From the IMG/VR virus record IMGVR_UViG_3300043438_001900: 60,316 bases of DNA. One strand, given 5' to 3'. Below the pieces are notes generated by a model. The model was not told the origin of the DNA and made no database searches. It was given only the letters and a program-made list of their open reading frames with translations. The stretch is from an uncultured virus (IMG/VR IMGVR_UViG_3300043438_001900). Taxonomy: Duplodnaviria; Heunggongvirae; Uroviricota; Caudoviricetes. The translations under genes were made by a program, and so were the position numbers. Positions 1,716 to 60,316 of the stretch are shown in pieces (positions within the stretch are counted from its first letter, which is position 1; each line of letters starts with the position of its first letter).

Positions 1716-2122
1716 GGGGATGAATGGAATTGATTGGCGTTGGTATTGTACGTGGGCACGTAGTCGGATGTCATCTACGACTTAAATAAATGGTGGTAAC
1801 AATTAGACGGCAACGTTTACAACAACATGGAAGTAGCTGGTTTACTAGCAACTTCTAAGGTGGCAGCCTAACCGCTCCCACTGGACGGGTCGATGGACAT
1901 ATAACCTTGGAACAGAAGTCCTCACGGTGTGGTACCTACCCAAAAAGGTACAAATGGTCTCGTTCAGAGTGCTACCATAAAAAAAGTGAACTCGACACAG
2001 TTTCTGATAACGATGTCAAAATAGGAATCAGATATTTGTCGGTTGTGAATAATCGAATAAACGTGTAGTCCATTTATGGTATGGCGAACAAGACGAGGGT
2101 TCAAATCCCTCCATCTCCACCA
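1716..2122 (+). ncRNA. ssrA: tmRNA
   Basis: 5' GGGGATG pairs with 3' CATCTCC-A-CCA with G3:U wobble (Ala identity); T-arm GAGGG-TTCAAAT-CCCTC; tag ORF 1809-1871 GNVYNNMEVAGLLATSKVAA*; TACCTTTG promoter element at 1692-1699. Confidence 0.95.
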
Positions 2123-54989: not shown

Positions 54990-55730
54990 ATGACACAGAA
55001 ACTAATAAACCTACTGAATGAGGACGATACTCAAAAGGTAGAACAAATGATACAAGACTTCGAGGGGTACAACCAAAATGGTATCGAGGTGGTTATGGTG
55101 AAGAAAGGTGATAGTGGTGGGGCCATAATGATGATACGGATAACATCCCCAACAATAACAGATGATATAGTAAACGAAAAGTTAGAGGTCATCTCAAAGG
55201 ACTTACAGTCCAAAGGGTATGGTGACCTAATTTTACTTTTCGTAGTTAGTGCCGTATACTATACACCTGAAGGTGTGGATTTAAAAATCGATGTGATGAA
55301 CTATCAACCACACCAAATCAAAAATAACCTGAGATATGAGTACCCTTCAATTCAGGATATACTAATGGGTAATGTGGACTTTACTATACAATCCAATGTA
55401 ATACCTACGGTTAATCAGGACACCGCAGAGTGGATTCGTATTAAGAAGAAGAGATGTATGACAGTATATCAGGTACTCCAAAAAGGTTCAGTTAATGGTG
55501 TGTCATACACACTAGGTCCCATCCATGGGATGAGTGAGGTGGAACCTACGGTTACTCCGAACTATAAAAAGACCTTACAGAGGGACACCATTAATCAACT
55601 TCTGTTATCCGTCGAATTAAACGTCCGTATTACAGAGGTCTCCGACCTCAATAGAAAGGACGAAGTCTCATACGGTATCAAAGAGAAGTTCGAAAAGTTT
55701 GGTGTCAACGTGGAAGTCATGGTGAACTAA
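54990..55730 (+). CDS. hypothetical protein (late-type promoter)
   Basis: TATTTATA at 54979-54986; start moved to ATG 54990. Confidence 0.65.
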   Translation: MTQKLINLLNEDDTQKVEQMIQDFEGYNQNGIEVVMVKKGDSGGAIMMIRITSPTITDDIVNEKLEVISKDLQSKGYGDLILLFVVSAVYYTPEGVDLKIDVMNYQPHQIKNNLRYEYPSIQDILMGNVDFTIQSNVIPTVNQDTAEWIRIKKKRCMTVYQVLQKGSVNGVSYTLGPIHGMSEVEPTVTPNYKKTLQRDTINQLLLSVELNVRITEVSDLNRKDEVSYGIKEKFEKFGVNVEVMVN

Positions 55731-56017
55731 AACACATATACATATTTACATATATAGACCCTGTCATACGACGGGGTTTTTTATTTTAGGACCGATATAA
55801 CGATATCCATAGTATACATTTCCAGGAAATTTAAATTTATGTCCTTACTTCACACAAGGTACAATCCCAGGGTAAATGTCACTGAGTGGTAAAAAGTGGG
55901 GGAAAGTGGCATTGTAATACGCCCAGCCCAAAAACCGGTCATTTTGACCTGACAAAAGTAGGGGATTTTCGTTACGACAAAAAATGTCTGGATAGTAGGG
56001 TTAAAAACGGGGTTTTT

Positions 56018-56362
56018 TTAGGGGTTATTTTTAGAATCATAAACCAATGGTTCCTCACATACCGGACACTCATCCAGTACAATCATATTGTTCCTGCGGA
56101 ACGACCAACGTTCCACGGTAGGTAATTCATCTACTGTAAGAACCGTATAACCATCCATACATTTTACTTCACCATCTATATCATAGTACCTACCTTTATA
56201 CCTTGTTACTATATGGTTTTTTCTTTGAGAAATATATGGGGTACAATCTTTATACATCTTCTTTAGTAGGATATGAAACCTATAACATCCTCCTTCGGTA
56301 TAGATGTATCTTATGTACCCATCTGTATTTCTCAGTTCATCTATGAATGTTAGTATATTCAT
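56018..56362 (-). CDS. hypothetical protein
   Basis: GGCY.F...H.......YDI.G (possible Cys-His-Asp papain-like triad); C-terminal CPVC. Confidence 0.65.
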   Translation of the reverse strand: MNILTFIDELRNTDGYIRYIYTEGGCYRFHILLKKMYKDCTPYISQRKNHIVTRYKGRYYDIDGEVKCMDGYTVLTVDELPTVERWSFRRNNMIVLDECPVCEEPLVYDSKNNP

Positions 56363-56383
56363 TTTATACTTTATGGTATTATA

Positions 56384-56668
56384 CTATATGGTATTATTGG
56401 AATCAACTATCCTTCTATACAATTCATGTTGTAATCTATAAGTCTCTAATCTTTGTTGTTCTTCATTAATAGTTATGGTATTATTCTCAATTGGATTGTG
56501 TCTTCTTCTATATCGTTCATGACGTATTCTATAACTTTCTTCTTCTGCCTCTATACCATACCTTAACGTATCTCTTATTCTTCTTCTTACAGATTCTTCT
56601 AATTCATTGGGATATACTTCTATTATACTATTATCAATATATCCCCTGCCAAGTTTAAAATTGTTCAT
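56384..56668 (-). CDS. hypothetical protein
   Basis: MNNFKLGRGY N-terminus. Confidence 0.55.
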   Translation of the reverse strand: MNNFKLGRGYIDNSIIEVYPNELEESVRRRIRDTLRYGIEAEEESYRIRHERYRRRHNPIENNTITINEEQQRLETYRLQHELYRRIVDSNNTI

Positions 56669-56677
56669 ATATATGGT

Positions 56678-56962
56678 TTAAGACATAAGACTGTCTATTA
56701 TTTTATCCTGTAATTCAAATATACTATCCATGTTGATATTATCATAATTCAATTCCTCCATAACGTATTCTGCCCAAACAATATAGTGGGTAAACGTGAG
56801 ATTATCCTTTATTGATACAATATCCGTGGCAACCCTATTAAACCCCTCATATTTTATCTCAATACGGATTGTGGTTTCATCTATATGATATAGTATTATC
56901 GATAACCCATATTGGGATATGATTTTGGTATTATATCCCCTGCCAAGTTTAAAGTTGTTCAT
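56678..56962 (-). CDS. hypothetical protein
   Basis: Same MNNFKLGRGY N-terminus; start moved to 56962. Confidence 0.55.
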   Translation of the reverse strand: MNNFKLGRGYNTKIISQYGLSIILYHIDETTIRIEIKYEGFNRVATDIVSIKDNLTFTHYIVWAEYVMEELNYDNINMDSIFELQDKIIDSLMS

Positions 56963-57059
56963 ATATATGGATTTCTTCAATTTATAGGTTTTAACCCCCT
57001 CGATTTTATATCTACACCATAAACAACGTAGAGATACTTATATTATAAAAGTAATCACA

Positions 57060-57254
57060 GTTGTATATACCTTTCAAATTGTGATTATAAACAACTGCAG
57101 AACAAATATCAACCTGTGTAGAACAGTTGTATACACCAATAAAAAGTATTTAGTGAGTGGGTTATTACCCCGAGATTATCTCCTCCTGTTTATTCAGGGA
57201 ATCACTATGGGTTGTACAACCAACCCCATCACTTGTGGTGATGAAAATATCTTG
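57060..57254 (-). ncRNA. second scaffold copy fused to half repeat + 30-nt guide + degenerate repeat (natural sgRNA / omega-RNA-like)
   Basis: 57138-57250 aligns with 59015-59133; half repeat GGTGTATACAAC at 57126-57137; spacer 57096-57125; 36-nt degenerate repeat 57060-57095. Confidence 0.75.
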
Positions 57255-58592
57255 TTTTTTCTGTAGACCTTTTAATAGTCTACCTTTCTTACTCTTACCT
57301 TTTACTTCGTTACCTTCAGCGTAAGTTATATTATATGCCCCAACAATATCGGCATCCTTTAGTTTACCGTAATCGTCACACTCAATGTTAATACAGGTGA
57401 ATTTGGTTTTATCCTTATCCTTTCTATTCTCCTTATCCACATTCTTACAAGTTGGACATGTAATAGATGTATCTTTTGGATTCACCCACAGGATTTGAAT
57501 CCCCACCATCTTTGCTTTATATTCAATATCCGTTTGAAGTTGATAATATGCCCACGATTTTAAAAACAAATCTTTAGTGTTTGTGGTTATACCAGTTAAG
57601 TCCTCCATCTTAATAATACCCACATTGTATTGTTGGGCAATATCAATAACATCCCTACTGATATCGTGATTCATTAACACGGACCAATTGTGTTCCTTTT
57701 CCTTTAATCTTTCCATTCCCAACATCTTTCTTGTTCTTCCATGTCCACCCTTGGCAAACTTCATGGATTGTTGAAGTGCTCTTCGTATCTTATAGAACTT
57801 CATTCTCTCAGTTTGAATCTTTTCACCGATTGAAATCTGTGATGGTTGATGTTTCTCCCCGTCAATGTATATTGATACTGGTCTGTTTATACCCAAATCA
57901 ATTCCCATTACCTTATCAGGAATCATATCCTTTGATTTTGTATCAGGTACTGTACATGTTAATAATAAAATAAAATCTTCATCCTTAATTTGAATAGAAC
58001 TGGTGTTCATTTTGTATTCACCATTCAATATTCTATTGACAATTTTTTCATTACCACTTCTATCCCTTCCGTAATGTAATTTGAATTTAATTCCTTTGTG
58101 AATACTTCTCTCTGATGACGATAATGGTAAGTTAAAAACATAATCCTCCCCTTCTTTACTCACCACAGGTTCTTTATTTACCGTACCTTTAAATGGTATT
58201 GTTAATGATGTTTTTCTAAATGATGGTATTGACATCTTTCCTTGTAAAATATCATAAAAACTCTCATCAATAGTTTTATATATCTTTTGACAAAACGACG
58301 ATTTTATGTTCGATGATATGATGGTATTTTTCTTCATTAAGTTATAACCCATATTCTCCACCATCGCCCCGTATTTTTCCTTGAAAATCTCTTTTGATTT
58401 AACTTTAGTAATATTAGTTGAATTTTTTATCTCATCCAACTCGTACTGGTTACAAACAGTTAACCTAATAACTTCGTTTCCAATTTGAACCAAGTCAGAT
58501 GCAATTCTTTTTACGTAATTGTACGATGCAGTTCTGTCCTTGCTGGTTTCACCAACCGCAATCAATTTGATTTTTCTTGTGATTATTGACAT
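57165..58592 (-). CDS. cas12f: compact type V CRISPR effector (Cas12f/TnpB-like), RuvC triad intact
   Basis: RuvC-I MGIDLGI, RuvC-II IKMEDL, Zn finger CPTC...CINIEC, RuvC-III DADIVGAYNI; 475 aa; adjacent array and tracr-like RNA. Confidence 0.85.
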   Translation of the reverse strand: MSIITRKIKLIAVGETSKDRTASYNYVKRIASDLVQIGNEVIRLTVCNQYELDEIKNSTNITKVKSKEIFKEKYGAMVENMGYNLMKKNTIISSNIKSSFCQKIYKTIDESFYDILQGKMSIPSFRKTSLTIPFKGTVNKEPVVSKEGEDYVFNLPLSSSERSIHKGIKFKLHYGRDRSGNEKIVNRILNGEYKMNTSSIQIKDEDFILLLTCTVPDTKSKDMIPDKVMGIDLGINRPVSIYIDGEKHQPSQISIGEKIQTERMKFYKIRRALQQSMKFAKGGHGRTRKMLGMERLKEKEHNWSVLMNHDISRDVIDIAQQYNVGIIKMEDLTGITTNTKDLFLKSWAYYQLQTDIEYKAKMVGIQILWVNPKDTSITCPTCKNVDKENRKDKDKTKFTCINIECDDYGKLKDADIVGAYNITYAEGNEVKGKSKKGRLLKGLQKKQDIFITTSDGVGCTTHSDSLNKQEEIISG

Positions 58593-58616
58593 ATCATGTT
58601 CTATTTTATGTTCATC

Positions 58617-58957
58617 GTTATATTAAAAACTTCAAGTAAGAGGTATTTACAACATAAATCCCATTAGTTCGTATGGGTTCGTAGTTGTATACACCTTTCA
58701 AATAAGAGGTATTTACAACGTACTTGATGACCTGCAACAGGTCCATCAGTTGTATACACCTTTCAAATAAGAGAAACCCAAAGTACATGTTGTATACACC
58801 TTTCAAATAAGAGGTATTTACAACGTTTTCTCTTTCCCATGAGGTGCATCACCTGTTGTATACACCTTTCAAATAAGAGGCATTTACAACTATTAACGGA
58901 TGTACCAAAAATTAACATATAGTTGTATACACCTTTCAAATAAGAGGCATTTACAAC
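58617..58957 (-). CRISPR. CRISPR array, 36-nt repeat GTTGTAAATACCTCTTATTTGAAAGGTGTATACAAC (transcribed strand), 6 repeats / 5 spacers
   Basis: Repeats 58922-58957, 58855-58890, 58789-58824, 58749-58773 (truncated), 58684-58719, 58617-58653 (degenerate); spacers 31, 30, 15, 29, 30 nt. Confidence 0.95.
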
Positions 58958-59011
58958 ATGGTTAACCCCATCTTATTATGAATCAACATATTGTGAATGA
59001 TTCCCTTATTA

Positions 59012-59160
59012 AAAAATAAAAGGTATTTAGTGAGTGAGAAGTTAATCTCCAGAAAAATTCCATCCTGTTTATTCAGGATTCACTATGGGCTGTACAACCA
59101 GCCCCACCAAAGTTTTACCTCTGATGAAAATATATTGAAGTTTCCAATATTTCAAAGAAC
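59012..59160 (-). ncRNA. tracrRNA
   Basis: Anti-repeat UAAAUACCUUU (59019-59029) pairs with repeat AAAGGUGUAUA; hairpin GGGCUG-GUUGUA-CAGCCC whose loop complements the repeat 3' end UACAAC. Confidence 0.8.
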
Positions 59161-59164
59161 AATA

Positions 59165-59195
59165 CAAAGATACGTGTATTTTTTAGATATCCAAA
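59165..59195 (-). promoter_or_regulatory. Bacteroidota-type promoter for tracrRNA-array-cas
   Basis: Minus strand TTTG-N19-TATCTTTG. Confidence 0.8.
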
Positions 59196-59216
59196 TTTTT
59201 TTTTAAAAATATTTTT

Positions 59217-59309
59217 TTATTCATCATCCTCCAACGAATCACTGTATGTGGGTTTATCCTTTGGGACATAGTCCTCATCACAATTATCAATATGGTCCTC
59301 GTCGTTCAT
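59217..59309 (-). CDS. 30-aa highly acidic peptide
   Basis: MNDEDHIDNCDEDYVPKDKPTYSDSLEDDE*. Confidence 0.4.
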   Translation of the reverse strand: MNDEDHIDNCDEDYVPKDKPTYSDSLEDDE

Positions 59310-59327
59310 AATAGATTTATTTTAAAT

Positions 59328-59500
59328 AACACCCTGATTTATCCAACTTACAGGTGTCGTGGCTGTCCCCGTTACCGGGTTAGAAATAGACTTTTGGATA
59401 GATAGTCAATCTAAATAGAGCCTTTCCCTATCAGAAGTTCCATATGGTTATCACACCACTTCTCATCGTATTGGACATACTATCCGGTGATTAACCGAAT
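59328..59500 (-). ncRNA. unidentified structured RNA downstream of the tRNA-like element
   Basis: Stems CGGU/ACCG, AGAAGU/ACUUCU, UAGGG/CUCUA, GACU/AGUC, CCCG-GUAA-CGGG, CACCUG/CAGGGUG; GC-richer than flanks. Confidence 0.5.
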
Positions 59501-59504
59501 CGCG

Positions 59505-59625
59505 TAGTCAGGACAGGAATCGAACCTATAACCAGTTTTCTAAGCCCTACGTGCAGGATTTTCACTGCCTCGTACTGGTGTCTAATCGAGCATACACAGC
59601 GTTTAACCAATTCCGCCACCTGACT
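59505..59625 (-). tRNA. tRNA-like RNA (121 nt) with non-canonical, expanded anticodon/variable region
   Basis: Acceptor AGTCAGG/CCTGACT-A; D arm TGGCGGAATTGGTTAAACGC; T arm ATAGG-TTCGATT-CCTGT; no 7-nt anticodon loop. Confidence 0.7.
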
Positions 59626-59813
59626 ATTAGCGTTCTATTAAAAATGGAAGTTATTGCGCCTATACCATTTCGTTGATACCACCAATATGGCGTTCATTTT
59701 ATTCCATTGTTCAAGTTTTGTGAACATTTTCAAATATAGATTTTTATTCCATCATTGCGCCTATTTTTCTTGCTTTGCGCCTATTTTTTCCACCATAAGG
59801 CTAAAATTAGAAA

Positions 59814-60053
59814 TTATTTTCCAAATGTTTCGTTGTAGTATTGTTGAGAGCCAATTACATATTCATCTGAAATGCCAAATTTGTAAGCATTCATTATCTC
59901 CTGCTTGTGCATTTCTTTGGCTTCGTCAACATCCACTAAAAAATTATCTATCATTGTTGTTCTAACAATTCCATCTGGTTCAGATTCTATTATTAAAATT
60001 CTTCGTTTCAATTCAGATATTAACCATTCTATACTGCTTTTTTGTTTTTCCAT
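59814..60053 (-). CDS. small phage protein (AKEM.KQ.I...YYNETFGK family)
   Basis: A paralog ending YYNETFGK* also runs from the window end to 60190. Confidence 0.7.
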   Translation of the reverse strand: MEKQKSSIEWLISELKRRILIIESEPDGIVRTTMIDNFLVDVDEAKEMHKQEIMNAYKFGISDEYVIGSQQYYNETFGK

Positions 60054-60316
60054 TTTATTTGTTGTTTAAATGTTTTCTATTTCTTTTTTAATTCTTCATA
60101 AATACCACCTAAAATAATCATTATGATTAGTTGTATAAATGTAGTTACCCAATAATAAGCGTGTTCCATAAGTTTTTTTGTTATTTAAGTTATTTTCCAA
60201 ATGTTTCGTTGTAGTATTTTTCTGCTGTTTCGTATGGCTTATCTCTAAAATGCCACGATTGATTATAGCAATTGATGATTTGTTGCTTCTCCATTTCTTT
60301 GGCTTGTAAAAGAATA

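Follow-up and report, generated by a model that had tools for sequence, protein, structure and literature searches.

The question raised by this locus is whether one phage-encoded Cas12f-type nuclease is served by guide RNA in two formats, a natural single guide and a tracrRNA that works with a CRISPR array, as the original prediction had proposed. The locus belongs to a jumbo phage from lake water whose record is of 310,691 bp, and the window, by which is meant the whole stretch of DNA analysed, covers 60,316 nt. On the minus strand a gene for a 475-aa Cas12f-type nuclease (57165-58592) is flanked by two copies, each of about 105 nt, of one structured RNA, one upstream at 59020-59126 and one downstream at 57143-57248. 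One copy stands apart from the spacer array and the other is joined directly to a guide. The reading that we favour, with a probability of roughly 0.6, is that a Cas12f1/V-U3-type nuclease without adaptation genes is served by the fused guide of the downstream module (module B) together with the tracrRNA and array of the upstream module (module A). The sequence features named in the prediction were all found where it had placed them, on the minus strand, and the parts of the locus are as follows.

59020..59126, minus strand: scaffold A, tracrRNA-like (covariance model R1, fold)
58990..59019, minus strand: tail of scaffold A (direct reading of the sequence)
58958..58989, minus strand: 32-nt segment from the scaffold A tail to the first repeat (conserved in relatives)
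58618..58957, minus strand: CRISPR array A (repeat family D1)
57165..58592, minus strand: cas12f-type nuclease gene, 475 aa (ORF and profile matches)
57143..57248, minus strand: scaffold B (covariance model R1, fold)
57126..57142, minus strand: linker loop and repeat 3' half (GGUGUAUACAAC) (fold, direct reading)
57096..57125, minus strand: guide 1, 30 nt, contiguous with scaffold B (direct reading)
57060..57095, minus strand: full 36-nt repeat of a second variant (repeat comparison)
57028..57059, minus strand: guide 2, 32 nt (direct reading)
57017..57027, minus strand: truncated repeat start (GTTGTTTATGG), the end of mini-array B (direct reading)

The nuclease and its surroundings

Cas12f effectors are small, about 400-700 aa, and carry a split RuvC at the C-terminus along with a zinc-finger/TNB domain; they form an asymmetric homodimer on one guide RNA, recognise a 5' T- or C-rich PAM and cleave double-stranded DNA. 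The size of the phage protein, its similarity to the family, its TNB domain and the adjoining CRISPR array all fit a Cas12f. Full-length PADLOC matches were obtained to Cas12u3 (9.3e-82) and Cas12f (PDLC01699, 1.4e-80), the Pfam Cas12f1-like_TNB profile matched at 1.4e-14, and nine Cas12f sequences in the PDB matched at E<=1e-30, the best being Al3Cas12f (9nzo) at 1.1e-48. Like TnpB, the protein passes the NCBIfam guided_TnpB cut-off (147.9 bits, the cut-off being 100), although it scores far better as Cas12f. Residues D232, E330, D413/D415 and C379/C382/C400/C405 are invariant among 30 homologues; by their motifs they are probably the RuvC and zinc-finger residues. Judged by these matches the nuclease is a Cas12f1/V-U3-type effector and not a TnpB.

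TnpB/OMEGA systems reside in IS200/IS605 or IS607 elements, which bring TnpA or transposon ends with them. The phage genome, unlike such systems, has no TnpA: Y1 transposase (PF01797) was absent from the 310-kb record in a search whose control was positive in 6 of 14 genomes. Cas1, Cas2 and Cas4 were also not found in the genome. CRISPR arrays adjoin the gene on both sides (58618-58957 for array A, 57017-57137 for mini-array B), as arrays do beside most relatives, and the locus is syntenic in phage contigs that measure 63-73 kb and in longer ones of up to 324 kb. No relevant Rfam family was found at E<=1 within 55500-60316. An identity of the nuclease with Cas12 hacker/Cas12p was set aside, those proteins being of 500-700 aa and showing no sign of belonging to the same family in the accessible part of their description (10.1101/2025.01.20.633832).

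Two copies of one structured RNA

That the two scaffolds are diverged copies with the same stems was borne out. Repeat families D3, D4, D5 and D8 link them, blastn aligned them at 76.6% identity over 124 nt, and each alone folds into the same five hairpins inside a closing stem, with an MFE of -38.8 kcal/mol for scaffold A (z -4.18, 0 of 200 shuffles as good) and of -35.8 kcal/mol for scaffold B (z -2.50, 5 of 200 shuffles as good). The stems quoted in the prediction, GGGCUG/CAGCCC against GGGUUG/CAACCC around a GUUGUA loop and CAUCAGAG/CUUUGGUG against CAUCAC/GUGAUG, are present as written, as is the hairpin CCUG-AAUAAA-CAGG. Covariance model R1 scored scaffold A at 111 bits (E 2.5e-21) and scaffold B at 99.5 bits (E 8.1e-19), and in the phage's own genome it found just these two copies.

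A covariance-model search beside homologues, which had been suggested as a check, gave 52 matches in 49 loci, plus 2 in locus L131, which belongs to a Flavobacteriaceae bin. RNAalifold predicted 20 pairs from 22 copies, 13 of them with changes on both sides. Relatives supplied 44 distinct copies for an alignment in which 98.0% of cells are paired; sliding the partner lowers this to 31-44%. These figures are favoured by the fitting of the alignment to model R1 itself. Changes on both sides occur in 14 of the 20 pairs of the alignment, the observed values being reached by none of 500 shuffles. These comparisons support the view that scaffolds A and B have both been kept by selection on RNA structure. 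The loop of stem 2 is complementary to the 6 nt before the guide at all six positions in 14 of 19 scorable modules and at five of six in the other 5; both loop and repeat end hardly vary among modules, so the putative pseudoknot is without support from covariation.

The downstream copy had been described as overlapping the last 28 or so codons of the cas gene and running through a short linker into the repeat 3' half and a 30-nt guide, and this is how it reads. The scaffold starts at 57250 and the reading frame, stop codon included, runs to 57165, the last codons of the gene (57165-57250, about 28) being a read-through into scaffold B. The overlap with the coding sequence is of 86 nt, that is 28 codons and the stop, and the stop codon lies in the loop of the last hairpin of the scaffold. 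The repeat 3' half (GGTGTATACAAC, 57137-57126) follows the linker and leads directly into the guide at 57125-57096. Linker and repeat 3' half close a terminal hairpin, AUACU/GGUGU, in cis, and the UACAAC before the guide is complementary to the GUUGUA loop of stem 2 (6/6 Watson-Crick). This layout of scaffold, natural loop, repeat 3' half and guide, laid over the 3' end of the gene, is like that of an omega-RNA or sgRNA. What had been called a degenerate repeat at 57095-57060 is in fact a complete 36-nt repeat of the other variant, with a 3' half like the upstream repeats and a different 5' half; with one to three differences, this type builds the arrays of L084 and L095.

Two kinds of change in the downstream copies bear on whether the overlap is constrained as protein or as RNA. 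The last hairpin, whose 5' arm is coding and whose 3' arm lies past the stop codon, changes from GGGG/CCC in the window to GGAGU/ACUC in L001, L085 and L087, and the tail peptides GVGCTTHS, GAGCTAHS and GASCMAHS reflect changes at codons of both arms of stem 2. On this evidence module B is constrained as RNA and not as coding sequence alone. The 28-aa C-terminal tail of the protein is missing in 24 of 30 homologues; accordingly, nothing suggests that the protein requires this tail. One pair of stem 2 is broken in the downstream copy of L084.

Scaffold A consists of stem 1, stem 2 with its GUUGUA loop and a closing stem around three hairpins, and has AAAUACC at its 3' end. In its tail an AU-rich hairpin, read by eye as CUUUUAUU-UUUU-AAUAAGGG, replaces the AAUACC/GGUAU hairpin and is followed by UUCACAAU, the decayed counterpart of the repeat 3' end. 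The decayed tail is the same in L001 and L085 and takes related forms in L090, L003, L004 and L093. The 32-nt segment between tail and array is 94% identical over 32 nt in L001 and L085 (one mismatch, one gap), a degree of conservation that may be that of a leader or that of a fixed first guide. It contains a promoter-like site, TTCACA-16-TAAGAT, in a scan that was at chance level: the upstream copy had been credited with its own promoter, and the consensus scan returned 15 sites against 13.2 +/- 4.1 by chance. Array A itself has four full 36-nt repeats, one repeat without its first 12 nt and a degenerate terminal repeat adjoining the gene, with four spacers of 29-31 nt and one truncated to 16 nt. 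The DNA strain in run X17 is without 105 nt of array A, 58684-58788. Scaffold A retains short complementarity to the repeat 3' half, AAAUACC to GGUGUAU and GUUGUA to UACAAC.

Relatives, guides and transcripts

A scaffold fused in cis to the first guide is found in 22 of 35 non-redundant modules of the phage-borne family, in which a cis-fused scaffold directly 3' of the gene is the norm. The scaffold overlaps the stop codon or starts at most 62 nt past it in 19 of 34 tabulated loci, deep branches of the tree included, several of these loci being near-identical contigs. Scaffold over the 3' end of the gene together with a guide is also seen in L001, L084, L085, L087 and L088, and with a shorter overlap in L097 and L101-L103. 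The prediction had proposed that the locus is either a TnpB-to-Cas12f intermediate or the holder of a dedicated second guide channel, and is supported in part: the omega-RNA layout stands, the fused form is the common module across the whole family and not a special second channel of this locus, and the protein is not a TnpB.

Scaffold B of the window shows 90-93% identity with its downstream counterparts in L084, L087 and L001, against 77% with the window's own scaffold A, and further orthologous downstream copies at 90-93% identity are present in L088 and L085; the nucleases of these loci are 75-78% identical. The greater likeness of downstream copies between loci than of the two copies within one locus supports upstream and downstream copies as separate orthologous lineages. 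Two close relatives, L090 and L083 (the window's sister, at 85% aa identity), have lost module B, which is therefore dispensable. The upstream tracr-like copy is probably derived: another hairpin stands in place of the joined one, and a conserved leader of 32 nt precedes the array. Module B is probably the older form, a polarity taken from a midpoint-rooted tree with long branches.

Relatives carry further variants, with either two to four tandem scaffold-guide units or arrays of 14-nt mini-repeats. In L101-L103 the whole scaffold is repeated for three to four successive guides, in L096 and L131 one scaffold is followed by 14-nt mini-repeats, and module B of L001 has a single guide without a further repeat. 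The linker loops of the modules range from 5 nt, as in L101, to about 20 nt, with free variation in length and sequence. Guide 1 is wholly different in L001, L084, L085, L087 and L088, and L087 and L088, which agree in the end of the gene, in the scaffold and in all 10 guide-like 28-mers upstream, part ways directly past the repeat 3' half of module B. By these comparisons guides turn over between strains.

Searches for targets were made at several scales. For guide 1, guide 2 and spacer 2, exact searches with 23-mers gave 0 matches in IMG/VR, and a 20-mer of guide 1 had 0 matches in a genome set of 185,579 species, exact-match scans of this kind being blind to mismatched targets. Both arrays gave chance-level matches alone (E 0.3-5) by blastn against 50,697 phage records. 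No second match of at least 16 nt was found in the phage's own 310-kb genome for seven guides or the 32-nt leader, and no word of at least 11 nt from guide 1 or guide 2 recurs elsewhere in 56000-60316. From 33 relatives' loci, 237 guide-like 28-mers yielded one weak match to the genome of the window (20 nt, 1 mismatch, E 0.001).

RNA libraries contain module A, a hint of expression that is weak because the library sequences are contigs. In library X19 a 166-nt contig corresponds to 58975-59140, which takes in scaffold A, with 0 differences, and in library X20 a contig holds scaffold A, leader, repeat 1, spacer and repeat in one piece; arrays of the second-variant repeat are also present among the X20 contigs. 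Two metatranscriptome runs had no contig on 57134-58673, which includes scaffold B, and such lack of cover is not evidence of absence. A -10-like box precedes other scaffold units and, by reading, has not been retained in front of the clade's downstream copies, so that expression of module B would depend on the cas transcript.

Proposed use of fused and split guides in one locus

In the favoured reading, the RNA of module B would be made from the 3' part of the cas transcript. Its natural loop would close the last stem, AUACU/GGUGU, as the counterpart of repeat:anti-repeat 2, UACAAC would pair with the GUUGUA loop of stem 2 as the counterpart of the pseudoknot (repeat:anti-repeat 1), and scaffold B with its 30-nt guide would serve as a natural single guide, any further unit of the two-unit mini-array B being used in trans. 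Module A would be a version of this scaffold whose cis hairpin and guide have decayed, leaving the terminal AU hairpin and the fixed 32-nt leader, and would act as a tracrRNA in which AAAUACC and GUUGUA pair with GGUGUAU and UACAAC of the array crRNAs. We infer that one nuclease loads both split and fused guides; transcription and processing of module B, the pseudoknot and DNA cleavage are likewise predicted from sequence.

Module B could instead be a second tracrRNA gene with a small array, its RNA invariably cleaved within the linker loop or first handle so that the nuclease uses two-piece guides only, and the cis fusion a genomic convenience that gives tracr and array one promoter. Many modules do continue into further repeat-spacer units, which must use the scaffold in trans, the free variation of the linker loops is expected if the paired strands alone matter, and the X20 contig that joins scaffold A to its array fits co-transcription. 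We nevertheless consider this unlikely, as a scaffold repeated for every guide in L101-L103 would be wasteful if one free tracrRNA served, module B of L001 ends after its single guide, and the 5-nt loop of L101 is like the natural tetraloop of the omega-RNA in the available part of its description (PMC10097598).

The structure of module B is kept at 90-93% identity between loci with proteins 75-78% identical, compensatory changes reach past the stop codon, guides differ between otherwise identical strains and the 28-aa tail is missing from most homologues. These points make it improbable that module B is a decaying remnant of an original gene-proximal tracr-array unit, kept mainly as part of the reading frame and with no present role, despite its loss without replacement in L083 and L090, the short and partly truncated mini-arrays of the window and L085, the stem 2 mismatch of L084 and the lack of targets found for the guides. 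A regulatory use of the fused RNA, as a guide for binding a partly matching phage or host site and not for cleavage of a competitor, has precedent in published natural single guides, as far as the accessible parts of the sources go (Workman et al.; dCas12f, PMC12259090), and would suit the leader of module A, conserved like a fixed guide. It is made very improbable by guides 1 and 2 varying among relatives, unlike a fixed regulatory target, by the invariant catalytic-type residues and by the searches of 56000-60316 and of the 310-kb genome, which returned no second match for the guides of at least 11 nt and 16 nt, respectively.

Natural scaffolds that carry their own guides are known from omega-RNA, TranC and dCas12f single guides, and the phage locus is a variant of these; the comparisons that follow hold for the accessible parts of the sources. 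The omega-RNA is a natural sgRNA whose guide-pseudoknot-stem core is common with the Cas12f sgRNA (PMC10097598). As with the omega-RNA (reRNA) of TnpB in ISDra2, the phage scaffold lies over or directly beside the 3' end of its nuclease gene, the guide is at the 3' end of the RNA, and a core of guide, putative pseudoknot and stem has a short natural loop between its crRNA-like and tracrRNA-like parts; unlike in the TnpB omega-RNA, the phage guide is followed by CRISPR repeats and not by flanking DNA, and guides are of 30-32 nt. With type V-F1/V-U3 Cas12f (AsCas12f, SpCas12f1, Al3Cas12f) the phage system shares protein family and size (422-497 aa for V-U3), the lack of adaptation genes and the several stem-loops of the guide scaffold, and the tested minimal loci have the tracrRNA region between gene and array, as in the downstream modules of the phage family (PMC7229846, PMC13186708). 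It may differ from these in a scaffold that is unbroken into the first guide, and differs in the two modules that flank the gene, in its jumbo phage carrier and in having relatives with tandem scaffold-guide units and 14-nt mini-repeats.

TranC nucleases can reportedly use both CRISPR RNA and reRNA. They are transposon-CRISPR intermediates (Jin et al., Cell 2025, via 10.64898/2026.03.27.714800, PMC13565253 and PMC13639567), some of which, such as CauTranC9, are phage-borne like the present locus. Compared by description, the phage protein differs from them in grouping with Cas12f1/V-U3 by profile and structure-sequence searches, and the locus in having split and fused forms side by side in one native locus as conserved separate lineages. 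The dCas12f-sigmaE systems are similar as Cas12f homologues with natural single, multi-stem, omega-RNA-like guides and no tracrRNA, and one dCas12f locus has full-length guide RNAs resembling the repeats of nearby arrays (PMC12259090). Their proteins are nuclease-dead, bacterial and tied to a sigma factor, with 14-16-nt guides that activate transcription (PMC12259090), whereas the phage locus has invariant catalytic-type residues, guides of 30-32 nt and a tracr-like copy that coexists with a regular array. The Cas9 long tracrRNA (Workman et al.), a natural single guide that represses its own promoter, is also a tracrRNA-derived RNA with its own guide beside a normal array; it is of type II, with a fixed guide partly matching the cas promoter, whereas no self-match was found for the phage locus.

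If the fused RNA is used uncut, evolution would have produced a single guide of about 130 nt, not counting the guide sequence itself, for a Cas12f competent as a nuclease, in a native locus that also encodes a split tracrRNA and array for that protein. The arrangement agrees with the proposal that CRISPR arrays arose from guide RNAs of the transposon type, the hypothesis that omega-RNA gave rise to tracrRNA and crRNA (PMC10097598), for which TranC has been reported, in the parts of the sources available, as experimental support. Were the favoured reading true, this step would be directly testable with one protein and two natural RNA formats, relatives with intermediate array types would be available for comparison, the covariation-backed scaffold variants could serve the engineering of miniature editors, and the locus would show the upkeep of guide sets by a phage without adaptation genes.

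A wider proposal, which we regard as possible but doubtful, is that this clade keeps the whole series from omega-RNA to CRISPR array, with arrays that grow without Cas1-Cas2 and one nuclease that takes guides both in cis and in trans. The series would begin with tandem complete scaffold-guide genes (L101-L103) and pass through one scaffold with 14-nt mini-repeats that represent the guide-proximal handle alone (L096, L131) to one scaffold with 36-nt repeats that duplicate the terminal hairpin (module B of the window, L095, L104), ending in a free-standing tracrRNA with leader and array (module A of the window). Growth of the arrays would proceed by duplication and recombination at the handle.

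Two scaffold copies around a nuclease gene

The window comprises bases 4736-65051 of a 310,691-bp virus record with a CheckV completeness of 93%, and 18 lake-water/freshwater DNA runs each contain 83% or more of the words sampled from the window. All features of interest lie on the minus strand of the window.

Features of the nuclease locus, beginning with the first in transcription order
59126 to 59020, minus: scaffold A, the upstream tracrRNA-like copy
59019 to 58990, minus: tail of scaffold A
58989 to 58958, minus: leader, 32 nt
58957 to 58618, minus: array A, which with scaffold A forms module A
58592 to 57165, minus: nuclease gene, 475 aa
57248 to 57143, minus: scaffold B, the downstream copy, within the last 86 nt of the gene
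to 57126, minus: linker and repeat 3' half, following scaffold B
57125 to 57096, minus: guide 1, fused to scaffold B in module B
57095 to 57060, minus: full repeat of a second variant
57059 to 57028, minus: guide 2
57027 to 57017, minus: truncated repeat start, from direct reading of the sequence

The original prediction of paired scaffold copies was confirmed, as A and B are connected by four repeat families, with 76.6% identity over 124 nt, and when folded alone each adopts the same architecture of stem 1, stem 2 with its GUUGUA loop, and a closing stem around three hairpins. The stems that had been quoted are exact in the sequence. The fold of scaffold A has a z-score of -4.18 (0 of 200 shuffles as stable) and that of scaffold B one of -2.50 (5 of 200). 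Array A has 36-nt repeats that are duplicates of the terminal hairpin, and their 5' part (…AAAUACC) resembles the scaffold 3' end. Two details had to be revised. The repeat after guide 1, described as degenerate, is a complete repeat of another variant followed by a second guide, and the claim that the upstream copy has its own promoter cannot be made because the promoter scan performs at chance level. Within array A, one truncated unit (58749-58804) consists of a 16-nt spacer and a repeat without its first 12 nt, and a DNA strain in sequencing run X17 is missing 105 nt of the array (58684-58788).

In the small metatranscriptome X19 a single contig falls on the 2.3-kb stretch; it is 166 nt long, equals 58975-59140 and takes in scaffold A, the tail and 15 leader nucleotides. 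A second metatranscriptome, X20, has a 263-nt contig from a strain variant in which scaffold A continues through the leader and repeat 1 into a different spacer and another repeat, and further X20 contigs are arrays of the second repeat variant. Contigs from RNA libraries cannot give ends, strand or level, and such libraries can contain DNA; these contigs bear on module A alone, for which they are a weak hint of expression.

The nuclease and its structured RNA family

The 475-aa protein was matched over its full length by the PADLOC models for Cas12u3 (9.3e-82) and Cas12f (1.4e-80), and nine solved Cas12f sequences match it at E<=1e-30, the best being Al3Cas12f (1.1e-48). Pfam identifies a Cas12f1-like TNB domain, while among NCBIfam models the broad guided_TnpB model scores above its cut-off and Cas12f2 below. 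D232, E330, D413/D415 and four cysteines are invariant across 30 homologues; we take these to be the putative RuvC and zinc-finger residues. Together these matches identify the protein as a Cas12f1/V-U3-type effector. Cas1, Cas2, Cas4 and Y1 transposase were not found in the phage genome by searches whose controls gave signal, and a passage of PMC7229846 describes V-U3 systems as being without adaptation genes. The family is large, with 581 matches at E<=1e-3, several of them on contigs of 250-343 kb. In 185,579 species genomes the only close relative, at 51% identity, is locus L131; the others reach at most 41%, and at most 36% where the match spans most of the length. L131 lies on a 248-kb contig (248,233 bp) binned as a Flavobacteriaceae MAG, which may be a mis-binned jumbo phage or a pointer to the host group.

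A covariance model was built from 22 scaffold copies, the loci of relatives being taken from viral and metagenome contigs. In the phage's own genome it finds only scaffolds A and B. The search among relatives, proposed with the original prediction, found the scaffold beside homologues of the nuclease, with 52 copies in 49 loci plus two in L131. In a plain MAFFT alignment 13 of the 20 predicted pairs show changes on both sides. In the model-fitted alignment of 44 distinct rows 98.0% of cells are paired, compared with 31-44% with slid partners, and both-sided changes occur in 14 of 20 pairs; none of 500 shuffles reaches the observed values. The scaffold corresponds to no Rfam family. It is a real and conserved structured RNA.

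Fused modules and upstream states among the relatives

Of 35 non-redundant modules 22 are fused: a loop that varies in both length and sequence leads from the scaffold 3' end (…CACUCAC-YRAAUAC) into the repeat 3' half (…GGUAUAUACAAC or a close variant of it), after which come a guide and usually more repeat-spacer units. The downstream unit of L097 (dn1) carries a variant of the motif, and the other 12 modules show no fusion. In L005, L007-L009, L014, L095-L098, L101-L104 and L107 the scaffold begins no more than 62 nt past the stop codon or overlaps with it, and whole scaffold units occur in tandem in L101 (four), L102/L103 (three) and L095, L096, L097 and L104 (two each). With so many modules fused, and with such gene-proximal and tandem units in relatives, the cis-fused scaffold and first guide is, on this comparison, the common module of the family and no peculiarity of the window.

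The tandem units downstream of the nuclease gene in L101:3854-4763, L102:1707-2212 and L103:3858-4363 number three to four complete scaffolds, each with its own short handle (the repeat 3' half directly before a guide) and a guide-like stretch, at loci with no regular CRISPR array; in effect, the entire ~95-nt scaffold serves as the repeat of an array. In L096 (3960-4290) and L131 (1373-1500 and 2933-3060) the scaffold is succeeded by a series of short repeats, about 12-14 nt long (…AGTATATACAAT/C), that is, the guide-proximal handle only; their spacers measure about 24-26 nt in L131, and in L096 they are irregular, at 17-75 nt. Such arrays would escape standard CRISPR finders. A spacer of L093 (1961-1988) matches L100:3897-3919, just downstream of the L100 nuclease gene, at 21 of 23 nt (E 0.008), which may be either a chance match or a case of one phage aiming at the locus of another.

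The window falls in a clade of eight rows with 100/100 support. Both modules are present in six of these and in the partial contig L089, outside the tree, and two modules also occur outside the clade in L005 and L131. The upstream copies of L084 and L087/L088/L099/L106 have kept a fused handle or lie directly against a repeat. In the window, L001, L085, L090 and L083 the AAUACC/GGUAU hairpin of the upstream copy has been replaced by an AU-rich hairpin, followed by UUCACAAU and then a 32-nt segment, and the same kind of state is seen outside the clade in L003, L004 and L093. This segment is 94% conserved among the window, L001 and L085; the spacers are not. We read the replaced form as a scaffold that has probably turned into a dedicated tracrRNA with a leader. 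The downstream module has been lost in L083 and L090. Gene-proximal downstream modules occupy the deepest branches of the midpoint-rooted tree, which, with such a root and long branches, can do no more than suggest that this form is the older one.

Scaffold B and the proposed guides

Scaffold B orthologues share 90-93% identity between loci at which protein identity is 75-78%. In the last hairpin GGGG/CCC changes to GGAGU/ACUC, the 5' arm being coding and the 3' arm lying past the stop codon, and the homologue tail peptides GVGCTTHS, GAGCTAHS and GASCMAHS differ at codons of both stem-2 arms. Of 30 aligned homologues only 6 have the 28-residue tail, and 24 end about 12-24 (mostly 12-20) residues past the KKGRxxKG motif, which gives the tail the appearance of translation reading on into the RNA gene. 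L087 and L088 are alike in their gene end, in scaffold B and in all 10 guide-like words upstream, and they diverge exactly after the module B handle, which shows turnover at the guide position. A function for the downstream RNA is very likely.

TnpB processes its own mRNA into omega-RNA. Module B would be transcribed from the cas message and later trimmed. In passages of PMC10097598 (Nakagawa et al.) omega-RNA is described as a natural sgRNA whose halves are joined by a natural tetraloop, and its guide, pseudoknot and last stem are equated with the guide, repeat:anti-repeat 1 and repeat:anti-repeat 2 of the Cas12f sgRNA. These elements can be read here: AUACU/GGUGU of module B, closed by UUUUAUU, corresponds to the last stem, and the loop sequence GUUGUA has its complement in the UACAAC that precedes the guide, as in the pseudoknot (6/6 in 14 and 5/6 in 5 of the 19 modules scorable). 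Our proposal is therefore a natural single guide from module B and, from module A, a tracrRNA that would pair with the handles of crRNAs from the array.

Of the earlier interpretation, in which one nuclease loads split and fused guides, the part that stands is that the downstream RNA has the form of a natural single guide, a putative guide for the nuclease; it does so in a Cas12f family where that form is standard. The nucleases of the TranC study reportedly use both CRISPR RNA and reRNA. In secondary passages TranC systems are described as intermediates whose reRNA is split into tracrRNA and crRNA; the hypothesis of such splitting is in print in a passage of PMC10097598, and one of PMC12259090 describes nuclease-dead Cas12f homologues with natural single chimeric guides and no tracrRNA. 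Full-text searches of the literature outside subscription journals gave no account of a phage locus in which a nuclease-competent Cas12f is encoded with both guide formats, and none of scaffold-guide units in tandem or arrays of 14-nt mini-repeats in this Cas12f family. No target was found for the guides in the phage's own genome or in the virus and species genomes searched.

Elsewhere in the window ARAGORN calls a tmRNA gene (1716-2122, plus strand) with tag peptide GNVYNNMEVAGLLATSKVAA. At 59500-59620 (minus) there is a tRNA-like end (…GGTTCGATTCC… then an acceptor-like end) with a long insert, uncalled by ARAGORN and by Rfam at E<=1, which could be a tRNA that is interrupted or unusual, or have no significance. 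Directly downstream of the small array of module B, two neighbouring small ORFs (56384-56668 and 56678-56980, both minus) have no PHROG match and share the start peptide …MNNFKLGRGY…; the next ORF (56018-56362) matches phrog_4814, of unknown function, homologues of which lie downstream of the locus in L087 and L088.
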